Below, in pieces: positions 16,689 through 28,756 of a DNA stretch of 64,000 bases (the stretch's first letter is position 1; each line of letters begins with the position of its first letter). This stretch comes from Thermodesulfobacteriota bacterium (GTDB lineage Bacteria; Desulfobacterota_D; UBA1144; Nemesobacterales; Mycalebacteriaceae), in assembly GCA_965226585.1 (NCBI GenBank), contig OZ245366.1, positions 1,312,001-1,376,000 on the forward strand, written 5' to 3'. A program made the translations under genes and the position numbers. The notes beneath the pieces were generated by a model that was not told where the DNA came from, made no database searches, and saw nothing but the letters and a program-made list of their open reading frames with translations.

Positions 16689-16721
16689 CGTCATTCCGTG
16701 CTTGACACGGAATCCGGTATT
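16689..16721. repeat. Solo arm B of the CGTC palindrome overlapping the stop codon of autotransporter 2
   Basis: CGTCATTCCGTGCTTGACACGGAATCCGGTATT; last 2 nt are part of the TAA. Confidence 0.88.
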
Positions 16722-19700
16722 AAAACGCTAATCCAACTCTCGCGCTAAACACCTGCGTTAGCGTATCCAGCCCCGGCGTTACTCCGCCGTCATAGTCAAT
16801 CCGCACATTAAAACCCTTATACGGCAACACAAACTCAGCCCCGGCGCCGTAATTAACCATTATCCTCTCAAGCGAACCGGTTACCTTGAACAAATCTCCG
16901 CCGCTTGTCCTCGCGCTCCACTGCGTTTCAGGGTCTGTAATGTGCGCGTCCGCTCCCAAACTCATCCAGATATTTACCGTCTCTCCCGCAGGAACATACG
17001 CCGTTACGGACGGGCTTATAACCAAATATGTCTTCCCCGCCCCGCCAACGGTAAGGGCGGAATCTTCCAAAGCCGTCTCGCGGAAACCGTCAGCGGATAC
17101 CTTTGTAACTCCCGCCTCAACTCTGGGGACAACCATAAACACACCGCCGGGAAATATCGGCATCTCCCCGCCCACAGCCGCAGACCATGTGGCTACATCC
17201 GTTTCCGCCCCGTGCTTCCCGTTATCGCCTCTTATCAGACTTTCCCCCCTTAACGCCGCAGATTCCCATGTCGCTCTGGCAAACTGCGTTCTCACATCCG
17301 TGATAATTCCGCTCCAAAACTCACTCGCCACCGAAATACCCGCCATAAACCTCTCGCCGCCCGCGCTTGTGTCTGCTCCGGCGTCAAAGTCCGATGTCTC
17401 ATATCCCGCCGCAACCGATACGATGGATTTTCCGGCAGGCACGGTAAAACCGCCCGTGAATACGTGGGCATCTTCACTGTATTCGGAAGTGGCGGTGTGC
17501 CGCGTGAATCTGCCGTCCGCCGCCGCCCACAGACAGCCGCCCCGCAGGTCTTGCGTTTCCGTCTCATCGCCGCCGCCGTAGCAACCGCCGCGCAGTTTTT
17601 CTGAAAATGCGTTGTCCGCGTAGTAGGCGGATTGAATCATGGCGTCATAGTTTCTCAGGTAATCGTATGGACGGAGGTTGGAAAGGGTAATGAAGATGTT
17701 GCCGATTTCATCCATCCGGGCAGACGCATTCCGTTCAAGCCCATCGCTTACTATGTTGAAAATTGCCTGTCTTTCATCTTCGCTGTCCACCAGAATTTCT
17801 TCCCTGAATAACAGAAACTCTCCCGAAAGTCTCTCAGGGTTGGCAAATCTTGCGCTGAAACCTTCAATGTCCGCCTCAGCTATCTCGTCTTCAACGTTTA
17901 TGAGCGATCTGCCCACCATCTCGACAGGGTCTGCGGTTATAAGAAGGAGTGAGTTTTCGCCGAAGGTTATTTTCTCCAAACCCGCAAAGCCCTCGCCTCC
18001 GATAACCATTGTGCCGTTGTTTATGAAATAGTCATCGCCGCCGCCAAAGTTTATTGGTATCCCCGTGCCGTTTATTATGCCGTCATTTCTGAAAGTGTCT
18101 TCGCCGGTTCCCGTGTCAAAAGAGCCGGCCATTGTGATAACTCCCGTGTCTTTGTTGGTAATTCTGTCGTGGTAATCGCTCAGTTTCACATCTCCGACTA
18201 TCGTTCCCGCGTTTTCCAGAATGGAGTGGTAGTCTGCGGGGTCGTCATCCGCATTTCCGTCATCCCTTATCCGCACCGCCGCCGCGCCCGCCGCGCCGGT
18301 TATAAGACAGTTGCGTCCCGCGTCTATCACACCTGAGCACACAAGGCCGTCTTCAAAAACTTTCATAATGGTTTTGTAATATGCCGCTCTGCCGCTTCTC
18401 AAAAATACCGCCGTAGAGTTCTGTCCGTCTGCCGATACATTCGCGCCGCCGGATATGTAGAGTTCCATCTTGCCCCCGCCGGAACTCCTTGCTCTTTCCG
18501 CAAGCATTATGGCCGCGCTGTCCACTCCGGTTGCATAGACACCCGCGCCGCCTGATATGTTCGCAATGGCGTCTCTGTTATATGCGTTGATATTTATAGC
18601 CGCGCTTCTCGCGCCGTTAGAGAAAACACGCGAACCGCCGTCAACATAAACGTATGACCTCGCGCCGGCAAAACCGTCTGTTATTGCTATTGCGTTGCTG
18701 TCTGCTCCGGTTGTGTACACTTGCGACCTTCCGGACACTCTCATGTGGGAATCCCCGATTCCGAAGCCAATAAATATCGCGTTGCTTTTCGCGCCGTTTG
18801 TCCAAACTCTGGAACCGTCGTGAACCACTATGTTGGCGAATGCCTCCGTATCTACGGCTATGGCGTTGCTCATTTCGTCTGTGGTGAAAACCCTTGACGA
18901 GCCGTTGACAATCACCCGCGCGAAATCGTCAATTCCGCCGTCCGCGCTGTTTGCGTAGATTGCCGTGCTTCCCGCGCCGTTTGCCCACACACGGGAATGA
19001 CTGTGGACTTCTATGTATTGATTTCTTTCAGATGCGTTTCCGTAGATTGAGTATGCCGAGTCTCCCTCCGTCCACACTTCCGACCCGCCGGAAATGATAA
19101 TGCCCGACCCCGGCGCTCTTTGAGAGTTCATGTATATCGCGCCCGTTCCCGCGCCGTTTGCCCAAACCTTTGAGCCGTTTGCAACCACCCACTCCGCTCG
19201 CGCCCCCGTCCAGCTTCCCGCGCTGTGATGCGAGTTTGACTCAGCCGCCGCTCTGCCTTCTCCAACAGACCACACATTTGAGCCGCTGATTGTAATTCCT
19301 ATAAATCTGTGCGAGTTCACGAAAATCGCGCTTCCTTCCGTGCCGTTTGCCCACACATTTGAGCCGTTGGCAATCGTAAGAGTTGTGTCCTGTCTTATGG
19401 CTCCCGCGCTCTCCGCCCTTATGGTTTTGCTGTTAATTCCTCCCGACCAGATGTTTGAACCGCTTGCGACAAAACCAATTCCTCCCTGTCCGGTTGAGTT
19501 CATCATCACCGCCGCAGAACGCGCCTGAAAAGAGAGTCTGGAATCTTCAAAGACGGTGGAGTCTCGTATTTCCACATAGATTTTGCCGGCGCCCGTTGTT
19601 TGCGCCCTGATGACGTTTGAGTCTCGTCCCGCGTTTTGCCCTGACCAAACCCTTGACGATTGGACCTTCACAACAACCGCGTTGGTTCCGGAGTCTGAGT

Positions 19701-20544
19701 TTGCGGAGGTGGCGAAGATTGCCGAACTTGCAGACTGGTTTGCCCATATCTCAGAGCCTTTGACATCAACCGCAACACTGCCGGTTCCGGGGTTGGCGGC
19801 AATCGCGCTTGAGTTAGTTCCGTCCGTCCATATTTTTGAGCCGTTTATTTCAATGTTTATATTTTCGCTGTCGCCCGCGCTGGTGATATGAACGGTGTTC
19901 AACCATCTGCTGAATACCGGCTTGCCCGCGCCCAGTTGAGAGTTGTGAATGGCAACGGATATTGGCGAGGGTGTTGCCGTTTCCACCCACAGCGCGCCCG
20001 CTCTGTTGCCGCTTGCCCGCGCTTTCAGGTTGCGGAGTTCAACATCCGGGCTGTCTGTTCTGATAGTGTTGACGCCCGGTTGAGAAGTCCATATTTCCAT
20101 TGTTTCGCCATCCGCCGCGCTGACAGAGAGCGAGCCACCGCCGCTTTCAGACCATATAGCCGAACTGCCCGCGCCGTTAGCCCATATTTTTGATGAGATT
20201 CCTGCGCGGTAGGAAACGCCGCCGCCCGCGCTTTTCAAGACAACCGTGTTGCTTTGCGCGCCGTTAGTCCAGATATCTGTGGCGTTAATGGTTAGAAGCA
20301 GGTTAGCGGTTTGATTTTCGTTGGAAGCGTTAACGGCGGTTGACTGGCTTCCGTTTGCCCACACTTTCAAGTTGGCGAGTGTGGTTGTTGCCGTTGCGTT
20401 GAATGTTGAGACGCTGTTATCCACCGTCCACAATTCTCCGTCTTTTGAGAAAGCCGCAACATCTATTGACTGTGCGTAAGAGGGAGGCGGTGAGAAAGCA
20501 AACAGGATTCCGAGTATGGAAAGCAGGGTTAGGGTTTTACGCAT
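16720..20544 (-). CDS. Autotransporter/adhesin 2 (1274 aa), barrel type C
   Basis: Signal peptide (..SYA|Q), WANG-type repeats, C-terminus ...FSARVGLAF. Confidence 0.87.
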   Translation of the reverse strand: MRKTLTLLSILGILFAFSPPPSYAQSIDVAAFSKDGELWTVDNSVSTFNATATTTLANLKVWANGSQSTAVNASNENQTANLLLTINATDIWTNGAQSNTVVLKSAGGGVSYRAGISSKIWANGAGSSAIWSESGGGSLSVSAADGETMEIWTSQPGVNTIRTDSPDVELRNLKARASGNRAGALWVETATPSPISVAIHNSQLGAGKPVFSRWLNTVHITSAGDSENINIEINGSKIWTDGTNSSAIAANPGTGSVAVDVKGSEIWANQSASSAIFATSANSDSGTNAVVVKVQSSRVWSGQNAGRDSNVIRAQTTGAGKIYVEIRDSTVFEDSRLSFQARSAAVMMNSTGQGGIGFVASGSNIWSGGINSKTIRAESAGAIRQDTTLTIANGSNVWANGTEGSAIFVNSHRFIGITISGSNVWSVGEGRAAAESNSHHSAGSWTGARAEWVVANGSKVWANGAGTGAIYMNSQRAPGSGIIISGGSEVWTEGDSAYSIYGNASERNQYIEVHSHSRVWANGAGSTAIYANSADGGIDDFARVIVNGSSRVFTTDEMSNAIAVDTEAFANIVVHDGSRVWTNGAKSNAIFIGFGIGDSHMRVSGRSQVYTTGADSNAIAITDGFAGARSYVYVDGGSRVFSNGARSAAININAYNRDAIANISGGAGVYATGVDSAAIMLAERARSSGGGKMELYISGGANVSADGQNSTAVFLRSGRAAYYKTIMKVFEDGLVCSGVIDAGRNCLITGAAGAAAVRIRDDGNADDDPADYHSILENAGTIVGDVKLSDYHDRITNKDTGVITMAGSFDTGTGEDTFRNDGIINGTGIPINFGGGDDYFINNGTMVIGGEGFAGLEKITFGENSLLLITADPVEMVGRSLINVEDEIAEADIEGFSARFANPERLSGEFLLFREEILVDSEDERQAIFNIVSDGLERNASARMDEIGNIFITLSNLRPYDYLRNYDAMIQSAYYADNAFSEKLRGGCYGGGDETETQDLRGGCLWAAADGRFTRHTATSEYSEDAHVFTGGFTVPAGKSIVSVAAGYETSDFDAGADTSAGGERFMAGISVASEFWSGIITDVRTQFARATWESAALRGESLIRGDNGKHGAETDVATWSAAVGGEMPIFPGGVFMVVPRVEAGVTKVSADGFRETALEDSALTVGGAGKTYLVISPSVTAYVPAGETVNIWMSLGADAHITDPETQWSARTSGGDLFKVTGSLERIMVNYGAGAEFVLPYKGFNVRIDYDGGVTPGLDTLTQVFSARVGLAF

Positions 20545-20617: not shown

Positions 20618-20643
20618 GGTGTCCAATAAAGGTGTCCAATAAA
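20618..20643. repeat. 13-bp tandem direct repeat GGTGTCCAATAAA x2 upstream of autotransporter 2
   Basis: Exact duplication; a degenerate third copy (GATGTCCACTAAG) near 20597-20609. Confidence 0.75.
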
Positions 20644-20658
20644 ACGGAATGCCTTCCC

Positions 20659-21260
20659 CGTCATTCCGTTGCCTTTCCCGTCATTCCTGCGAAAGCAGGA
20701 ATCCAGTATTGGTTAACCAGTTGAATACTGGATTCCGTGTCAAGCACGGAATGACGGGATGGGGAAAAACACGGAATGACACACTTTCCCGTCATTCCTG
20801 CGGAAGCAGGAATCCAGTATTGATTAACCAGTTGAATACTGGATTCCGTGTCAAGCACGGAATGACGGGATGGGGAAAAAAGCACGGAATGACACACTTT
20901 CCCGTCATTCCTGCGGAAGCAGGAATCCAGTATTGGTTAACCAGTTGAATACTGGATTCCGTGTCAAGCACGGAATGACGGGATGGGGAAAAAAGCACGG
21001 AATGACACACTTTCCCGTCATTCCTGCGGAAGCAGGAATCCAGTATTGGTTAACCAGTTGAATACTGGATTCCGTGTCAGGCACGGAATGACGGGAAGGG
21101 GAAAAAGCGCGGAATGACACACTTTCCCGTCATTCCTGCGAAAGCAGGAATCCAGTATTGGTTAACCAGTTGAATACTGGATTCCGTGTCAGGCACGGAA
21201 TGACGGAAAGGGGAAAAGGCACGGAATGACGGGAGTGTAGAAGCGTCATTCCGTTGCCTC
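20659..21260. repeat. Tandem array of five 78-bp CGTC palindromic doublets (period 111-113 bp), left of the GIY-YIG gene
   Basis: Units start at 20679, 20790, 20903, 21016, 21128, joined by a conserved GG(A/T)GGGGAAAA(A)GCACGGAATGACACACTTTCC-like linker. Confidence 0.95.
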
Positions 21261-21263
21261 CTC

Positions 21264-21648
21264 CGTCATTCCTGCGAAAGCAGGAATCCAGTATTATTTA
21301 ACCCGATGGACAAAAATCCCGCAGTCTACATAATGGCGAGCAAGCGAAACGGAACACTTTACACAGGTGTAACCAGCAACCTGCCCGCCCGCGCTTGGGA
21401 GCATAAGAACAGCGCGACAGAAGGTTTTACAGACAAATACAGTGTCCACCTGCTTGTGTACTTTGAAGTGCACGAGGATATGAATTCAGCAATTGAACGC
21501 GAGAAGCAGATAAAGCAATGGAAACGCCAATGGAAATTGGAACTTATAGAGAAAGACAACCCTGAATGGAAAGATTTGTATGAGGATATTGTTTGAGTAG
21601 GGGTTTCGCCAGTTGAATACTGGATTCCGTGTCAGGCACGGAATGACG
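21264..21648 (+). mobile_element. Candidate autonomous palindrome element: arm A + GIY-YIG gene + arm B
   Basis: Arm A at 21264-21295, gene at 21306-21596, arm B at 21616-21648; the gene occupies the place of the 13-bp spacer of ordinary units; mobility is inferred. Confidence 0.6.
21306..21596 (+). CDS. Small GIY-YIG nuclease (96 aa; UPF0213/YhbQ-like stand-alone family)
   Basis: AVYIM...LYTGVT..L..R..EH...A..REKQIK.W.R.WK..LIE..NP.W.DL; expected catalytic Y8, Y19, R29, H33, E66 present. Confidence 0.92.
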   Translation: MDKNPAVYIMASKRNGTLYTGVTSNLPARAWEHKNSATEGFTDKYSVHLLVYFEVHEDMNSAIEREKQIKQWKRQWKLELIEKDNPEWKDLYEDIV

Positions 21649-22333
21649 GGAAGGGGAAAAGGCACGGAATGACACACTTTCCCGTCATTCCTGCGGAAGC
21701 AGGAATCCAGTATTGGTTAACCAGTTGAATACTGGATTCCGTGTCAGGCACGGAATGACGGGATGGGGAAAAAGGCACGGAATGACGGGAGTGGAGAAGC
21801 GTCATTCCGTTGCCTCCTCCGTCATTCCTGCGGAAGCAGGAATCCAGTATTGGTTAGCCAGCTGAATACTGGATTCCGTGTCAGGCACGGAATGACGGGA
21901 AGGGGAAAAGGCACGGAATGACACTCTTTCCCGTCATTCCTGCGGAAGCAGGAATCCAGTATTAGTTAGCCAGTTGAATACTGGATTCCGTGTCAGGCAC
22001 GGAATGACGGGAAGGGGAAGAAGGCACGGAATGACACTCTTTCCCGTCATTCCTGCGAAAGCAGGAATCCAGTATTAGTTAACCAGTTGAATACTGGATT
22101 CCGTGTCAGGCACGGAATGACGGGAAGGAGAAAAGGCACGGAATGACACACTTCCCCGTCATTCCTGCGGAAGCAGGAATCCAGTATTGGTTAGCCAGTT
22201 GAATACTGGATTCCGTGTCAGGCACGGAATGACGGAAAGGGGAAAAAGGCACGGAATGACGGAAAAAAAACAATCAACGGAATGACGGAATGGTGGAAAG
22301 CACGGAATGACGGGAAGGGGAAAAGGCACGGAA
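21649..22333. repeat. Tandem array of five 78-bp CGTC doublets right of the GIY-YIG gene, ending in stuttered GGAATGACGG ends
   Basis: Units start at 21683, 21820, 21932, 22045, 22157; several partial right ends at ~22250-22333. Confidence 0.95.
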
Positions 22334-22342
22334 TTACAGGTC

Positions 22343-25300
22343 TTAAAACCTGTAATTAACTCCGCCTCTGAACTGTTGCACAAAAGTATCAACCGAAGAA
22401 CTAACCCCGCCGCCATATTCAACACTCACATTAAACTTCTCATAAGGGCTGTATTCAAAACCCGCCCCGTAGGTGAACATCACCCTGTCCATTGTGCCGT
22501 CAACGGGAACATTATCCCTCTCAAGCCTTCCTTCAATCTCAGATTCAGGGTTAAGCACTTGTATATCCGCCCCTGTTCTTATCCACATATTTATTGTCTC
22601 ATTGAGAGGACTCCGCGCCTCTATTGACGGACTCACGTACACAAGCAACTCGCTTATCTCATCTACCCCAAAGGCATCCATCGCCGCATCCGCCGCACCT
22701 GTTCCTGTTGTAAGCGAAGTCTCATTAAACTTATCCGCCGTTATTTGAGATGCTCCAACCGCCACACGGGGGAAGAAAGCGAACTCTCCCATTAAGAACG
22801 GTCTTGCCGCGCCTATCTCGCCGCCGAATACCGTTGCGTCCACATCCGCCGAGTAACTGTTACCCGCCGTTCTGGTCGCTTCCCAACTCGTTGACCCGTA
22901 ACGCAGGTTGCCGTCAAGCACAAACTCATCAACCAACGCCTCGGCAAATATACCGCCCATGAACCTTGTTGCATCTCCGCTTGCTTTGCCCAGTCCTCTC
23001 GTGTCCGCCGCAGTCTCTGTTTCTGAACTCGCGTCTATGTCCGATATCTCATATCCGCCCGCGATAGAAACAAGCACTCCGCTAAATGGCGCGGAAAAAC
23101 CGCCGGTGAAGGAATAAACATCCTCGTCATATTGTATCGCCGATGTGTGCCTTGTGTATCTTCCGCCCGATGTTGCCCATACGCATCCGCCAGTCCAAAA
23201 CTCTCCTTCTATCTCATCACTCGCCGCTCCGCTGATTCCGCATCCTCTTGCCAACTTGTCAGCAAAGTTTCTGTCTGAACGGTAGGCGGACTGTATCAAT
23301 GCGTCATATACATCCAAACTTGTGTCTTTGTGCGATGTTGCTCTTAAAAACAGGTTGCCGTTTTCGTCTGTCTCAACAGTTATTCTTTCGCCGATTTCCG
23401 CGCTCAGGCGGTCTGCAACTTCCTGCCTTTCTTCGCCTTCCGGCAGGGCTTCCGCTTCAAAAATTGTGTATTCCGTTACATGCGCGCCGGGAACTTCAAC
23501 TTCAACATTGAAACCCTCAACATCTTCGGCGGTTATCGTCCCCTCAAGGTCTATCAGCGGGTCGCCCGCAACGCTTTCAGGGTCTGCCGTGATAACAAGG
23601 GTTGAGTTTGCGCCGAAAGATATCTTCTCAAGCCCGTTAATCGTTTCCCCGCCACTTATTACCAAAGTTCCGTTGACTGTCAGAGTGTCTCCATCGCTAT
23701 CTCCAAAGTTCAGAGAACCGCCGCCCGATTTCTCCGGCTCCGTTTCCACAAACTCAGCGGTTCCCGCAGAACCGAGACGGAAACGCCCGTCTCCGCCGGA
23801 TGATGCGGAACGCCTGCTGCTGGTGGTAATATTCGTGCCTTCATACGTTCCGCCTGCGGCTATGGTAACACTTGCGCCGCCCACAACAGCAGATGTGTCT
23901 ATGTCGCCATACACCTTGCCGGTGGCGTTAATCGTAACTATTCTGTTATCGTAACCAAGGGTTCCTGACCACCCCTTCGCGCCCGCAGACATTTTTATCG
24001 CCTTGCCGCCCGTTACGTTCACGGTTCCGTCCACCCAAACAAAAGCCCCGCCGTTTGCCGTGCTCGCGGAAATCCCGATTCCCGAAGTCGCACCCGCCGC
24101 CCCTTTCGCGTACACCGCCGAACCTTCATCAATAATTACATTTGCATATCCGGTATCAGCCCTCGCTATTATCGCCTTCCCGCCGGTTCCGCTCGCGTTC
24201 ACAAGCGTTCTGCCTCCTAATCTTACTGTCGCCTCTATGTCATGCACACTTACGGCAGATGCCCCTGTTTGGGGGTTCGTCCTCGGCGCGCCGGTTGTTG
24301 TGGCGTTCAGCCCTTCAGCCTGTCCGCCCGGGAGGCTGATAACATGTGTAACATCCGAACTTGACGAATGATAAGAGTTGACAGTCGCGTCCGCCCCGGC
24401 CGATTCTGCCACGGCATACTTGCTTTGGGTTCCGTTTGCGTAACGCACTGCGGGAGTTCCTCCGCTTGGTGTGCGGAAAATAATATCCACCCGGGCATTT
24501 GCGCTGCTTGAGGATGCGTGGGCGGCGGTACTGCGGTTGTCGCCGTTCACGAATAAAATGCCGCTCGTCTCAATACTTGCGTTTCCGCCTGCGCTAGCCC
24601 GTATCGCCGTGCTTCCAATGCCCTCCGTATAGACAGCCGTGCTGTGACTTGCCTGTCTGATTAAAACATTTCCCGACCCGCTCACTCCGTACAGGGCGTG
24701 GCTTTGCTTCTGCACCGCCCACACTTTTGCCTGTCCTGAAACGGTAATGGCAACATCTCCGCTTCCGCTTGATACGCCACTAAACGCGGATGACCTGTCA
24801 GGGATGACTGACAGCCGAGAATCTCCGCTCATTGAAAAAGATATATCTCCGTTTCTCGTCTCCGCGACAATTGCGTCTGCAAGGAAATGACCGCGCATAG
24901 CTACCTGAGAGGTGCCGCCAAGCGCAATATTTATGTCTCCGTCCGCGCTGTTCGCGTGTATGGCTCTGGCGGCGGTTCCGTATTGCGGGAATCCGGCTAT
25001 CACCTGCGCGCCGCCCTGCAAACTGACGGTTGTGGAGCCGTTGCGGGTTTGCAGTCTGACGGTATTGGTATTCGACTGCCCTGAGGAAACATACGCCGAA
25101 TCCGGATTCTCTAACGGCGCGTCTGCCGCCGCCGCCGCGCCGTTGACATAAAGCCCTATGGCACCGTCCACCGATGTCGCTTTTATGGTGTCGCCACTCC
25201 CGCCGGTAACGACTCGCGACTTGTCGGAAATGATTATTTTTGTTTCTCCGTTACCCACTTGCGACACGACACCGCTTCCTACCGCCTCTATACGGGAATC

Positions 25301-28300
25301 GCCAACCAGAGTAATTTCCGTTCTTTCTGTTGAGCCGCTTGCGTCAACACTCAGCACGGAGGCTCCGCTTGTTTCTGTGGCGATGCTGGAGTTTGCAAGA
25401 TAGACCCTAACTCCAAGTTCAGTTCCCTGTGTTCCCGCTACGTATGAAGAGCTTACGTGAACCGCGCTTCCCGCTCCGGCGACCGCCGTCAGCGGAGAAT
25501 TGACTATATCAAGCGTTGCCGTGCCTTTGTCAGCCCGAACCTGCGCGGCGCGTCCGCCGGCGGATTTAATAGTTGAGCTGTTGACGATGACATGCACGCC
25601 TCCAACCACTCTTGTTCCCACAGCCGAAATTCCGCTTGACCCCGCAACCGCCATGACGGTTGAATCATTCACCGCCAAAACTACCGCCGGCAAGTCCGCT
25701 GTTCCGCCGGGGCCCGCTCCGGCGTCAACGGCGTCAACGGCATTTGCTCCCGCGCCGTTTAACGCGATAAACGAGTCGATTACATTCACTGCTCCAACAA
25801 TTCCTCCAACCGCCGGGTTGCCCGCGTGCGCCGACCATACCTTGGACCCGCTTATGTGCACAGTCGCCCCTTTGACGGCTGTGCCCGTGCCTGATGTGCC
25901 CGTTGCCCAAACCTCCGAGCCGTTAGTTATGCTCACGCCGCCAGCCGTGGTGATGCCTTCTCTTACCGCCCACACCTTTGAGCCGTTAACGGTTACATCT
26001 CCGCCGGTCTGGATTTTGATGGCATTGCCGGCCGCGCCGTTTGCGCCAACTACCGCGCCGTTGACCACATTCACCGCGCTACCCGTTTGAATCGTGATTG
26101 ACTCGGCGCCTTCGCTCCAAACGCTGACGCCGTTTAAGTCAAAACCCTCACTGAAAGAAGTGATGACAAAGGTTCCCGCGCCGTTAGACCAAACTTTTGA
26201 GCCGTCTGTTATGGTCAGCGATGTCCTTCCCGTTTCGGGAATTACAGGGTTCACGGGGCTGTCTCCCGTTGACCACACATTTGAGCCGCTTATGCTGATG
26301 TCTGCTCCTGTTATCGCGCTTTTTGCCGCTCCATGCGTCCAAACGTTTGACCCGTTAAACACTTTCACCGTTCCGGTTGCCACAATTCCGCCGCCGCCGG
26401 TCGCGCTGTTTGCCCCCGCAGTCGCGCCGCTCAGAAGTACGTCTTGCGCCGTAATCGCGTTGCTGTCCGCTCCTTCAGCCCACACAGACGCGCCGTTGAG
26501 TGTTACGGTTCCGGTTGCGGTTGTGGCAAGGGCGTCTGTTGTCGCGCCGTTAGCCCACAGCTTTATGCCGTGAATTGTTACTTCCGTTGTTATTCCCGCA
26601 GTTGAAGCACTGTCTGCCGTTGTCCAAACTTCTCCCGCTCCGTCTCTTGATTCAATGGTGAGCGTTCCCGAAGTCGCATTAATCGCAGAACTGCTCGCGC
26701 CTTCCGCCCAAACCTTTGAGCCGCCGTAAATTTCGAATAATGAGGCAACCACAACCGCGTTGCTGTTATCGCCTTCCGTCCAAATTTGCGAACCGCTTCT
26801 GATTGTCGCGTTTTCGGTTACGGCAAGGGCGTTTGTTGTCGCGCCGTTTGCCCACACTTTTGCTTGCCGAATAAATGCTCTGTCCGCCCTCAGGGTTAAA
26901 GCCCCATCACCGGTTGTCCAAATCTCTCCCGTTCCGGCAATGGCAAGCCCTCCGCCGCTTCCCGCGGAAACCGCCCGACTTCCCGCGCCGTTTGCCCAGA
27001 CCTTGCCGCCGGCGGTAATTATTAGTGAGTTGGCGATAATCGTGTTGGCGTTATTGCCTTCCGTCCAAACTTCCGAGGAGTACACTCTCGCGGAATCCGA
27101 AACTACCGCATCAGACCTGAAGCCGCCCGTCCACACCTTGACGCTGTTCTGAATGCCCACAGTTGTTGCCTTTATCGCGTTACTGATTGGGCCGTTTGCC
27201 CACACATTCGCGCCGTTCCAAATATTGACGGTTGGCGCAAGGATGGTGTTGGATTGGCCGCCTATTGTCCACACATTCGCGCCAATGACTGTTACGGGTG
27301 CTGATGTTGCCTTAACTGCGTTGCTTCTCGAGCCGTTTGCCCACACATTTGCGCCGTTCCAAATATTGACAAGTGCCGCAACGATAGTTTCGGAACCTTG
27401 GCCGCCTATTGTCCACACATTCGCGCCATTGACTGTTACGACAGCTCCCGCCGTAACCGCCTGACTTCTCGAGCCGTTTGCCCAAACTTTCAGGTCATTG
27501 ATGACCGCCGTTCTTACCGCTTTCACTGCTACAGTCGAGGATCCTTTAACCCATATCTCTCCCGTTCCGTCTTCAGATTCTATGGTAACCGAGTCCGAAC
27601 TTCCCGAAACAACGGCGATTCCGCTGGATGAGCTTGCCCAAACCTTTCCACCGCTTGAAACATTCACCGTGTCCGAGACTATCGTGTTGGAGTTAAAGCG
27701 GTTTCCCGTCCAAACTTCCGAGTTATCGACCAGCACGGCTGTAGCCAAAATCGCGTCGCTTCTGGCTCCGTCACTCCAAACCTTCGCGCCGTTCCAAAGG
27801 CTCACAGTTTTTGCCTGTATCGTACCGGCGTCTGATTTGTTAGACCATATTTGCGCCGATGAGACCTTTAAGGCGTCCGTTGATATGACTGCCAGTTTGC
27901 CGTCGCTCGTCCATATATCAAGTTCTGATATTAGCGCGCCGTCCGGTGTGGCGCTGATAATGTTGACGGCGTAACTGTTAAAGCTGAGTGAGTAGATTTC
28001 GCCCGCTGAGGCGTTGCCGGAGATGGTAACGCTTCCGCTGTTGGTTTGAACCGCCAGAGCCGCCCCCCCGCCTGCGGAGTATCTTTCCAGCGCGATTTTT
28101 GAATTGTTGCCCACCCAAACGGTGGTGGATGTGTTCACGCCTTTGAATTCAACGGTATTCACGCCATTGCCGCCTGACACGCTAATGTCGCCTGAGGTAA
28201 CAAGCATATTGTCTGTTATTACCGCGGCTATATTTCCCCGTTCTATATTTACGCTAATCACCGTGCTTTCGTCTGAGTTTATAACGTCCGGTTCTCCGTC

Positions 28301-28756
28301 TCTTGAGCGGATATCCAAATCAAGGTTTGTAATGGTACTGGTGTTTGTAATGATACCGGTGTTTGTGTTTGGGTCTCTTACGTAGGTAATTGGGTCTCTT
28401 GCGTAGGTAATGTTGAAATTAATTCCGTCTCCTCCGATTAGCGGAACGGGTTTTGTGCCTTCAATGATGAAGGGGCGGATAGTCTTTGTGGTGGATGAAA
28501 TAACCCCGCGTGTGCGACTTTTAAATATGACTTTTACAGGGGTAGTCACCTCCGGAGACGTGAAGGTTGTCGTTGAGGAATCTGTCGCGGGAAAAATTGT
28601 GGAAATTATCACCACGGAAGGATCGTTCGTGGTTACGTAACTTGTGTTGGAATAAAATGTATTGGAATAAGATACTGTCTGGGAATAAGATACGCCCGGC
28701 ACGATGAGGGTGCATAAAAGAGCAAAAAGAACGAGTGCGAACGAGCGTTTACGCAT
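22343..28756 (-). CDS. Autotransporter/adhesin 3 (2137 aa), barrel type B
   Basis: Signal peptide (..SYS|Q), repeat passenger, C-terminus ...FRGGVNYRF. Confidence 0.87.
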   Translation of the reverse strand: MRKRSFALVLFALLCTLIVPGVSYSQTVSYSNTFYSNTSYVTTNDPSVVIISTIFPATDSSTTTFTSPEVTTPVKVIFKSRTRGVISSTTKTIRPFIIEGTKPVPLIGGDGINFNITYARDPITYVRDPNTNTGIITNTSTITNLDLDIRSRDGEPDVINSDESTVISVNIERGNIAAVITDNMLVTSGDISVSGGNGVNTVEFKGVNTSTTVWVGNNSKIALERYSAGGGAALAVQTNSGSVTISGNASAGEIYSLSFNSYAVNIISATPDGALISELDIWTSDGKLAVISTDALKVSSAQIWSNKSDAGTIQAKTVSLWNGAKVWSDGARSDAILATAVLVDNSEVWTGNRFNSNTIVSDTVNVSSGGKVWASSSSGIAVVSGSSDSVTIESEDGTGEIWVKGSSTVAVKAVRTAVINDLKVWANGSRSQAVTAGAVVTVNGANVWTIGGQGSETIVAALVNIWNGANVWANGSRSNAVKATSAPVTVIGANVWTIGGQSNTILAPTVNIWNGANVWANGPISNAIKATTVGIQNSVKVWTGGFRSDAVVSDSARVYSSEVWTEGNNANTIIANSLIITAGGKVWANGAGSRAVSAGSGGGLAIAGTGEIWTTGDGALTLRADRAFIRQAKVWANGATTNALAVTENATIRSGSQIWTEGDNSNAVVVASLFEIYGGSKVWAEGASSSAINATSGTLTIESRDGAGEVWTTADSASTAGITTEVTIHGIKLWANGATTDALATTATGTVTLNGASVWAEGADSNAITAQDVLLSGATAGANSATGGGGIVATGTVKVFNGSNVWTHGAAKSAITGADISISGSNVWSTGDSPVNPVIPETGRTSLTITDGSKVWSNGAGTFVITSFSEGFDLNGVSVWSEGAESITIQTGSAVNVVNGAVVGANGAAGNAIKIQTGGDVTVNGSKVWAVREGITTAGGVSITNGSEVWATGTSGTGTAVKGATVHISGSKVWSAHAGNPAVGGIVGAVNVIDSFIALNGAGANAVDAVDAGAGPGGTADLPAVVLAVNDSTVMAVAGSSGISAVGTRVVGGVHVIVNSSTIKSAGGRAAQVRADKGTATLDIVNSPLTAVAGAGSAVHVSSSYVAGTQGTELGVRVYLANSSIATETSGASVLSVDASGSTERTEITLVGDSRIEAVGSGVVSQVGNGETKIIISDKSRVVTGGSGDTIKATSVDGAIGLYVNGAAAAADAPLENPDSAYVSSGQSNTNTVRLQTRNGSTTVSLQGGAQVIAGFPQYGTAARAIHANSADGDINIALGGTSQVAMRGHFLADAIVAETRNGDISFSMSGDSRLSVIPDRSSAFSGVSSGSGDVAITVSGQAKVWAVQKQSHALYGVSGSGNVLIRQASHSTAVYTEGIGSTAIRASAGGNASIETSGILFVNGDNRSTAAHASSSSANARVDIIFRTPSGGTPAVRYANGTQSKYAVAESAGADATVNSYHSSSSDVTHVISLPGGQAEGLNATTTGAPRTNPQTGASAVSVHDIEATVRLGGRTLVNASGTGGKAIIARADTGYANVIIDEGSAVYAKGAAGATSGIGISASTANGGAFVWVDGTVNVTGGKAIKMSAGAKGWSGTLGYDNRIVTINATGKVYGDIDTSAVVGGASVTIAAGGTYEGTNITTSSRRSASSGGDGRFRLGSAGTAEFVETEPEKSGGGSLNFGDSDGDTLTVNGTLVISGGETINGLEKISFGANSTLVITADPESVAGDPLIDLEGTITAEDVEGFNVEVEVPGAHVTEYTIFEAEALPEGEERQEVADRLSAEIGERITVETDENGNLFLRATSHKDTSLDVYDALIQSAYRSDRNFADKLARGCGISGAASDEIEGEFWTGGCVWATSGGRYTRHTSAIQYDEDVYSFTGGFSAPFSGVLVSIAGGYEISDIDASSETETAADTRGLGKASGDATRFMGGIFAEALVDEFVLDGNLRYGSTSWEATRTAGNSYSADVDATVFGGEIGAARPFLMGEFAFFPRVAVGASQITADKFNETSLTTGTGAADAAMDAFGVDEISELLVYVSPSIEARSPLNETINMWIRTGADIQVLNPESEIEGRLERDNVPVDGTMDRVMFTYGAGFEYSPYEKFNVSVEYGGGVSSSVDTFVQQFRGGVNYRF

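Follow-up and report, generated by a model that had tools for sequence, protein, structure and literature searches.

A GIY-YIG nuclease gene of the Ssn type between the arms of a CGTC-tagged palindrome, and its gene-less counterparts, in a Mycalebacteriaceae genome

Introduction

Does a small nuclease gene that sits between the two arms of a palindromic repeat bring about the spread of that repeat in its genome? The question is raised by a tandem array of palindromic units in a stretch of 64,000 nucleotides from a Thermodesulfobacteriota bacterium of the family Mycalebacteriaceae (contig OZ245366.1), called here the window. One unit of the array carries an open reading frame (ORF) for a GIY-YIG protein of 96 aa between its arm A and its inverted arm B; the other units are empty. 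An initial annotation, made from the letters alone, had presented the locus as a candidate autonomous 'REPtron' of a new type, whose nuclease may drive the spread of the hairpins and of which the empty units look like internal deletions. Its coordinates, its sequences and the arm A-ORF-arm B layout proved exact base for base. The analysis presented here supports that gene and hairpins belong together, as a pairing conserved across phyla, and leaves the mobilisation of the repeats by the enzyme unproven.

The annotation also advised a check of the literature for an earlier report of the association, and one was found. Repetitive extragenic palindromes (REPs) with a CGTC tag were classified by Di Nocera et al. 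2013 (PMC3733652). The prevailing form among them is a head-to-head dimer whose spacer is conserved, heterodimers exist, and in the available part of that text a dedicated transposase seemed to be lacking. The statement that no dedicated mobiliser is established for such palindromes held for that paper and has been overtaken by Chenal et al. 2025 (PMC11893778), of which the following rests on the part available. The Neisseria repeat NTS, CGTCATTCCCGCGMAVGCGGGAATCYRG, adjoins homologues of one gene, ssnA (94 aa, GIY-YIG, CDD cd10448). At least one motif lies near 71% of the ssnA homologues and both sides are occupied in 42%, and 81% of the genomes in which the motifs exceed 200 possess the gene. 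Four enzymes, from N. meningitidis, N. elongata, N. wadsworthii and Wolbachia, recognise the hairpin solely as single-stranded DNA (ssDNA), to which they bind, and cut a few bases upstream of it; double-stranded DNA was not cut by the characterised homologues. The three bases preceding the palindrome were most critical for cutting, and the C following it for binding. In N. meningitidis, SsnA caused an about 5-fold drop in the integration of transforming DNA that carries the repeat, and clusters of NTS adjoin membrane-protein genes. The NTS-ssnA-NTS layout was likened to an insertion sequence, and an analogy with IS200/IS605, RAYTs, REPs and BIMEs was put forward as a hypothesis. No joining activity of Ssn is reported in the same part of the paper. 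A search of the literature available returned no report of mobilisation by Ssn and no work on Ssn later than that paper. Small GIY-YIG genes paired with inverted CGTC hairpins have already been published, as Ssn with NTS/SRM, and a new type is not supported for the locus.

The nuclease of the locus

The 96-aa protein matched the Pfam family GIY-YIG (PF01541, E 7.8e-16, residues 6-78) and no second Pfam family. An NCBIfam scan assigned it to no family, and no PDB chain matched it at E <= 0.01. Six residues (Y19, G21, R29, E32, H33 and E66) were invariant in an alignment of 15 homologues, among them Y19, R29 and E66, the catalytic residues expected of the ORF; Y8 is present as well. With an offset of 2, Y8, Y19 and E66 probably correspond to Y6, Y17 and E64, which were mutated by Chenal et al. 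2025 (PMC11893778). The protein showed 62% identity (E 2e-46, 92 of 96 residues, gapless) to a homologue of Uruburuella suis (Neisseriaceae). This homologue is entered as 'ssnA homolog present' YES, with all four criteria, in the available Supplementary Data 4 of that paper; a homologue of N. meningitidis SsnA is defined in the paper by tblastn E < 1e-10 over > 75% of the query (PMC11893778).

The protein also falls in the size range of the small single-domain GIY-YIG enzymes (about 94-100 aa), and inverted hairpins stand 5' and 3' of both ssn copies of the genome, as in NTS-ssn-NTS. The flanking repeats conform neither to the published NTS consensus nor to the SRM string as transcribed here; in arm B, the inner stem and the 5-nt loop differ from the consensus. 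On homology and layout, despite the failed match to the SRM string, the protein would be a member of the Ssn family. An ssDNA-specific, hairpin-directed cut by it is predicted from the published biochemistry of four homologues.

Gene-bearing and empty units

The genome of the window (G000) is one contig of 1,484,247 bp with 51.6% G+C. An empty unit was defined as an arm A core, 5-40 nt and an arm B core, with at most 2 mismatches, and 142 of them were found at 60 loci (73 and 69 on the two strands). Their dominant 13-nt spacer follows the pattern xxTTA[AG]CCAGTTG, with GGTTAACCAGTTG (18), AATTAACCAGTTG (13) and GGTTAGCCAGTTG (12) as the commonest forms. Single hairpins of the pattern GTCATTCC-N8-14-GGAATCC numbered 280, and the reversed control pattern gave 0. 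Because of this difference, and because the gene-in-unit arrangement recurs at G000:C1:1209374-1209661, hairpins and unit are not a product of chance. Cargo other than ssn was not found between A and B arms in G000, which has two ssn units only, and 10 further A arms are orphans without a nearby B arm.

In the gene-bearing unit of the window, the 10 nt ATTTAACCCG separate arm A from the ATG (21306), and the stop codon TGA (21594-21596) is followed by the 19 nt GTAGGGGTTTCGCCAGTTG (21597-21615) up to arm B. When the left flank ATTTAACC is joined to AGTTG over the common CC, the result, ATTTAACCAGTTG, fits exactly to the spacer pattern xxTTAACCAGTTG. The empty unit therefore equals the filled unit minus 307 bases, a cargo whose limits can move by 2 as CC stands on both sides. 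The likeness of the spacers to the flanks of the gene, which the initial annotation had remarked, is thus real. The arms of the gene-bearing unit, compared by eye with the consensus of the units, differ from it at two dimorphic loop columns only. At 42 homologous loci with both hairpins, the distance between forward hairpin and ATG had a median of 20.5 nt, and that between stop and reverse hairpin one of 15 nt; at the locus of the window, the corresponding distances are 18 nt and 27 nt. Since the short spacing recurs across these loci, the gene between hairpins is probably the standard and ancestral layout. Most simply, the empty unit would be a deletion product of an ancestral gene-bearing unit.

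The empty units are highly uniform. Pairs of the 120 standard-length units differed on average at 4.0 of 78 positions (5.2%). Nearly all of this falls in five columns: a single base of either hairpin loop, and positions 1, 2 and 6 of the spacer. In 120 of 120 aligned units there was no variation in the stems, in the GTC preceding the stem or in the C following it. This pattern suggests strong homogenisation or selection. The invariant GTC and C are the bases to which cutting and binding were most sensitive in the published Ssn experiments (PMC11893778). Units of the same array were closer to each other than units of different arrays (2.25 vs 4.07 differences).

Some side observations on the units were also made. 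The two loop columns are almost evenly dimorphic in the 120 units, with GGAA in 63 and GAAA in 55, and TCAAG in 72 and TCAGG in 46. Orphan A arms at G000:C1:1189476 and 1210498 (+) and at 690232, 780651 and 832941 (-) abut the 3' ends of barrel genes; by eye, the TAA of ...GVNYRF* is at these five partly made of the first bases of the arm, and the repeat begins at the stop codon. An isolated unit at G000:C1:316743 has an imperfect direct repeat of ~27 nt on both sides (cttgaagcggcaagagggatggagtag / cttgaagtggcaagggagacgaagtag), which could be a duplication made by insertion or a pre-existing tandem repeat. The one other GIY-YIG domain of G000 (C1:1307751-1307981) lies within an open frame of 578 aa, possibly UvrC, with which its size is compatible.

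The second cassette

The second ssn copy is situated 124 kb off, between arms A and B in another array, and encodes an identical protein. From arm A through the ORF to arm B, 2 bases distinguish the cassettes: a synonymous one within the ORF and another in arm B's loop. The near-identical stretch extends from the CGTC of arm A to the GTC, on the other strand, of a half-hairpin 27 nt past arm B, and just outside the cassettes the two arrays differ by indels. The barrel genes beside the cassettes are 80% identical in DNA, and their proteins show 69% vs 100% identity to one query. Because a difference of 2 bases in the cassette stands beside barrel genes of 80% identity, the cassette was copied between the arrays after its neighbours had diverged. 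Gene conversion through repeat homology, copying stimulated by a nick and true transposition would each explain this.

Signs of insertion and excision were looked for. In 36 single units inspected by eye, neither target-site duplications nor a target motif recurred consistently. Four public runs were examined as Logan contigs, three (X1-X3) from one sample and one (X4) from another sample and study; no RNA run was among those listed for the locus. In X1-X3, ssn was found on a contig of 368 nt, and joints found among repeat units were ambiguous. Joints that link the two arms over the gene, the sign of an excision, did not occur in the contigs of X1-X4, a weak negative as contigs break at repeats. 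In X4, which is labelled a sponge metagenome, the repeat units of 20634-22500 were present at high summed depth with no ssn contig at 90% likeness; a relative with the repeats in which ssn is diverged or absent could be its source.

Homologues across phyla and in the genus

To relate gene and hairpins in other genomes, the best 80 homologues were taken with one genome per species (57-70% identity), and 79 were kept after one was dropped for a short flank. The hosts of the best 80 belong to Pseudomonadota, Syntrophaceae, Dehalococcoidia, Planctomycetes, Anaerolineae, cyanobacteria and candidate phyla. A forward hairpin was found within ~135 nt upstream in 48 of the 79 and a reverse one within 120 nt downstream in 58; 39 had both and 67 had at least one side occupied. 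Control windows 700 nt further out gave 1 upstream, 2 downstream and 0 with both among 66. Homologues are thus flanked by inverted CGTC hairpins, as had been anticipated. Among 21 loci from the window's own order, a flanking inverted repeat scored above the best of 100 shuffles in 12. More distant proteins (45-56% identity) are accompanied by other hairpin types, every one of which begins with GTCAT. The homologues of 57-70% identity (L022-L101) include candidate-phylum bacteria with genomes < 1 Mb, and on several contigs two ssn copies lie within 2-3 kb of each other (L037/L044, L080/L094).

The arms vary together with the protein, a second expectation that was borne out. Arms of the same locus differed by 3.4 edits vs 6.5 between loci (43 loci with both arms; permutation p 0.0002), and arm distances increased as the proteins became more distant (Mantel r 0.42, p 0.0005, 77 loci). 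As kin have both features in common, this co-variation is co-inheritance, and co-adaptation is not proven by it.

The expectation that the number of repeats tracks the presence of the gene stood in part. Among 41 genomes of the order, 11 had a strong homologue (E <= 1e-20) together with the pattern and 18 had neither, as expected; 6 had the gene only and 6 the pattern only, which does not agree with it. The tracking is real but loose, as it is in the available part of Chenal et al. 2025 (PMC11893778). Within the genus, the counts are 280 hairpins with 2 genes for G000, 14 hairpins for G001, 13 of them at its two gene copies, and none of either for G003. Units with the G000-type spacer were not found in the other five genus genomes searched; in G002, the six or seven pairs present have another spacer, of 31 nt.

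The G001 loci showed a further peculiarity. Upstream of its second ssn copy (L003:2260-2800), arm A and ~64 nt of the ORF start form five tandem repeats with a period of 110 bp. The repeats break after the L-Y-T codons of the second GIY-YIG motif and restart 8 nt before the CGTC tag. The entire ssn region of G001 occurs twice, ~1.27 kb apart, and the duplication takes in the 3' end of the gene upstream.

Organization of the array and its neighbours

The array of the window (Table 1) consists of 11-13 copies that recur every 111-113 or 136-137 bp (detected both as 11 copies of 110 nt and as 13 of 65 nt). The unit is a heterodimer of two arms which are alike at their ends and different inside, arm B being a second hairpin type. 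Each arm folds alone into an 8-bp hairpin of -7.8 kcal/mol (z -7.0 and -4.1; 0 of 200 shuffles as good), and the whole empty unit folds with -25 kcal/mol (z -7.4).

Table 1. Features of the palindromic array and of its flanks, in window positions.
Feature	Position	Strand	Remarks
1274-aa gene, Autotransporter beta-domain	16720..20544	-	PF03797, E 5.7e-13; start faces the array
Tandem array of palindromic units, one with ssn	20650..22340 (approx.)	.	Between two autotransporter-type genes
Arm A	21264..21295	+	CGTCATTCCTGCGAAAGCAGGAATCCAGTATT, 32 nt, read directly; CGTC tag, 8-bp stem ATTCCTGC/GCAGGAAT, loop GAAA, tail CCAGTATT; NTS-like
Left spacer remnant ATTTAACC	21296..21303	+	Positions 1-8 of the empty-unit spacer, xxTTAACC
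Cargo without counterpart in empty units	21304..21610	+	307 nt; deduced from filled and empty units compared
ssn gene, 96-aa single-domain GIY-YIG nuclease	21306..21596	+	ORF, Pfam and alignment
Right spacer remnant AGTTG	21611..21615	+	Last 5 nt of the empty-unit spacer
Arm B, read on the - strand	21616..21648	-	AATACTGGATTCCGTGTCAGGCACGGAATGACG, 33 nt, inverted; CGTC, 8-bp stem ATTCCGTG/CACGGAAT, loop CCTGA, tail CCAGTATT
Empty unit, example	21682..21764	+	Arm A, spacer GGTTAACCAGTTG, arm B
2137-aa surface-protein gene, C-terminal outer-membrane beta-barrel	22343..28756	-	PF13505, E 5.3e-8; array directly after the stop codon

The hairpins of the genome are concentrated behind surface-protein genes. 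In G000, 20 of 28 paralogues with the barrel domain have hairpins at most 400 nt downstream, and 160 of the 280 hairpins lie within 2 kb of the 3' end of such a paralogue, vs 7.3% of random positions. This clustering behind autotransporter genes repeats, in an unrelated host, the membrane-protein pattern of Neisseria. ComEC and DprA are intact in G000, so the uptake of ssDNA is genetically possible.

On the - strand of the window (20773-22165), seven terminator-like hairpins (GGAATGAC ... GTCATTCC and a T-rich run) occur, one in each array period. They are oriented in the reading direction of the autotransporter genes and are built from the outer end of arm A and the half-hairpin of the linker. 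On both strands, 8 terminator-like sites were counted in the array vs 2.4 expected from shuffles.

Origin of the empty units

The probable reading, in our judgement, is that an Ssn cassette occupies the spacer of a hairpin pair, and that the empty units are its deletions, multiplied by duplication and recombination with Ssn nicks as a stimulus. The predicted action of Ssn is to bind the hairpins in single-stranded DNA and to make a nick a few bases 5' of the CGTC tag. The comparison of filled and empty units suggests that a clean internal deletion of the cassette likely gave rise to the empty ones. Their later increase in this lineage is likely due to tandem duplication, together with recombination or gene conversion between autotransporter loci that are paralogues of each other, and nicks at the unit borders would be a likely stimulus of this rather than a step of a transposase. 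The same nicks may trim incoming or exposed single strands at hairpin loci, as in Neisseria, and could in this way modulate recombination of the surface genes.

Several findings weigh against this reading. Many single units stand in paralogous contexts, and much of their spread is possibly plain duplication of a gene family. Three genus genomes carry hairpins, and no Ssn gene was found in them (G002 with 30, G004 with 30 and G005 with 14 hairpins; drafts of 10-60 contigs). G004 and G005 gave no GIY-YIG match at E <= 0.001, and G002 gave one weak match (E 5.4e-4, 35% identity). Empty head-to-head pairs were few in five other Ssn-bearing genomes (9, 0, 2, 0 and 1), and no flank-like spacer was seen among them. 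As the spacers there differ from the flanks of the gene, the picture of deletion derivatives is not general; the spacer equals the joined flanks of the genome's own ssn in 1 of the 6 genomes compared (G000 and these five). The proposal of the annotation that empty units are internal deletions thus fits in G000, where the joined flanks match, and does not extend to the others. Further, a regular-expression transcription of the degenerate SRM string matched neither arm and gave 7 matches in the genome vs 2-14 in five shuffles. By eye, arm A agrees with the NTS consensus at 26 of 28 positions, and both differences form one compensated stem pair (C-G -> T-A). The biochemistry behind the predicted cut is that of homologues, and ComEC and DprA are too widespread to prove competence.

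A more pointed form of the favoured reading makes the two gene-bearing units masters and the 142 empty ones their deletion offspring, multiplied with the help of Ssn nicks. It is doubtful, and if it were true Ssn would be the long-sought mobilising partner of the CGTC-tagged REPs, working by nick and copy, unlike the known transposases.

Another explanation is a domesticated host function. Ssn and the hairpins would regulate recombination of surface loci or transformation, or the hairpins would serve as terminators or mRNA stabilisers, and the arrays would have grown by slippage and unequal crossing-over. The lowered integration of repeat DNA by SsnA and the NTS beside membrane-protein genes, both from the available part of PMC11893778, are in line with it, as are the hairpins behind the barrel genes of G000, the presence of ComEC and DprA, the greater likeness of units within an array, and the terminator-like hairpins along the autotransporter reading direction with their excess over shuffles. 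It does not account for an empty-unit spacer composed of the flanks of the gene, for the copying of the cassette between arrays whose neighbours are not identical, or for the patchy spread of near-identical cassettes across phyla. As an account of the locus it appears rather unlikely.

The strict 'REPtron', in which Ssn excises or copies hairpin pairs and inserts them elsewhere, with the empty units as non-autonomous passengers resembling miniature inverted-repeat transposable elements (MITEs), is improbable. The hairpin-gene-inverted hairpin order is the layout of an insertion sequence, as remarked in the available text of Chenal et al. 2025 (PMC11893778). The cassettes are 2 bases apart and the array neighbours 20% apart, and the near-identical stretch is bounded by CGTC and GTC, near the reported cut sites of Ssn. 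The burst of 142 uniform units is confined to the genome with a matching cassette, the 120 aligned units differ by just 5.2% on average, and homologues of 57-70% identity in Pseudomonadota, Dehalococcoidia, Planctomycetes, candidate phyla and cyanobacteria point to horizontal movement of the cassette. Like MITEs, the empty units have terminal inverted repeats in common with a gene-bearing element and the form of its internal deletions; the target-site duplication and the transposase in the partner, also features of MITEs, were not found, the partner being a hydrolytic nuclease. GIY-YIG enzymes hydrolyse DNA with no covalent intermediate and have no known strand-transfer chemistry, and no joining activity is reported for Ssn. 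The inverted hairpins would moreover place one cut on each strand at opposite ends, whereas IS200/IS605 elements are cut on one strand at both ends. The single units without consistent target-site duplication or target motif, the absence of a contig that links the two arms over the gene (a weak point, from contigs only) and the relatives with hairpins and no gene found also speak against it.

Some GIY-YIG enzymes are homing endonucleases, and the ssn ORF could be such a selfish gene, parasitic on the spacer of older hairpin pairs and entering empty ones by break repair. Both copies occupy the identical spacer position (TTAACC / ... / CCAGTTG) in two arrays and just 2 of 144 units are filled, but this explanation is very improbable, as across phyla the gene comes with its own hairpins at a short fixed distance, which makes them a part of the cassette and not a later target, as no DNA-binding domain exists beyond the 78-residue catalytic domain, as the characterised homologues do not cut double-stranded DNA in the available text of PMC11893778, and as an active homing gene facing 142 empty targets would be expected to have filled more than two.

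Comparison with known systems

For the question left by Chenal et al. 2025, namely whether the repeats owe their spread to the enzyme, the locus is a natural case of unusual clarity. It lies in a small closed genome with two near-identical gene copies and 142 uniform gene-less pairs whose spacer comes from the gene's own flanks, and it has close relatives which lack the burst and hold no matching cassette. The Neisseria-like clustering in an unrelated host suggests that the link of Ssn repeats to variable surface-protein genes is general.

GIY-YIG homing endonucleases of the I-TevI type are similar to the system in their catalytic domain and their patchy, selfish-looking distribution. They differ from it since the protein here has no DNA-binding domain, is not located in an intron or phage, and has characterised relatives that cut ssDNA only. 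Membership in that group was rejected for a protein of 96 aa with one domain at an intergenic chromosomal site.

REPINs and RAYTs (IS200/IS605-like HUH) similarly have a single- or low-copy enzyme gene between inverted hairpins recognised as ssDNA, and many gene-less pairs elsewhere. There the enzyme is an HUH/Tyr transesterase and the tag is GTAG; here a GIY-YIG hydrolase, for which no joining activity is known, is found with the tag CGTC. Membership among RAYTs or REPtrons was also rejected, on the GIY-YIG domain without any HUH/Tyr transposase and on the tag.

The repeats themselves are closest in design to the CGTC-tagged REPs, of which the families with an 8-bp stem and a 4- or 5-nt loop (including Neisseria dRS3 and Rickettsia RPE-6) have the same tag, a stem starting with AT and a 3-nt tail, and form head-to-head dimers with the tags outside, conserved spacers and heterodimers; stems of 8-9 bp define the class as a whole (PMC3733652). 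Both arms possess this CGTC tag, an 8-bp stem starting with AT, a loop of 4 or 5 nt, the tail and the C after the palindrome, and head-to-head dimers with a conserved spacer were found in the 142 units. Unlike here, no enzyme gene is described with the repeats in the available text of Di Nocera et al. 2013 and clusters are rare (PMC3733652); at the present loci the gene lies inside the dimer and the arrays reach up to 10 units.

The nearest known system is Ssn/NTS of N. meningitidis, which shares the small single-domain GIY-YIG protein (96 aa here vs 94 aa in SsnA), the gene between inverted hairpins of the order CGTC, ATTCC... stem, loop, ...GGAAT and CCAG, and hundreds of hairpins per genome beside membrane- or surface-protein genes. 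The stem is ATTCCT...AGGAAT here and ATTCCC...GGGAAT there, and arm B, whose loop has 5 nt, belongs to a second type. Most hairpins here stand in uniform 78-nt head-to-head pairs with the gene-flank spacer and in tandem arrays, and the host has a genome of 1.48 Mb and is not Neisseria. The pairing of a small GIY-YIG nuclease with CGTC hairpins is already known from the available part of PMC11893778, and the locus is a clean new example of it. New here are the empty units resembling clean internal deletions, a burst confined to one of the six genus genomes searched, and hairpins placed behind autotransporter genes.

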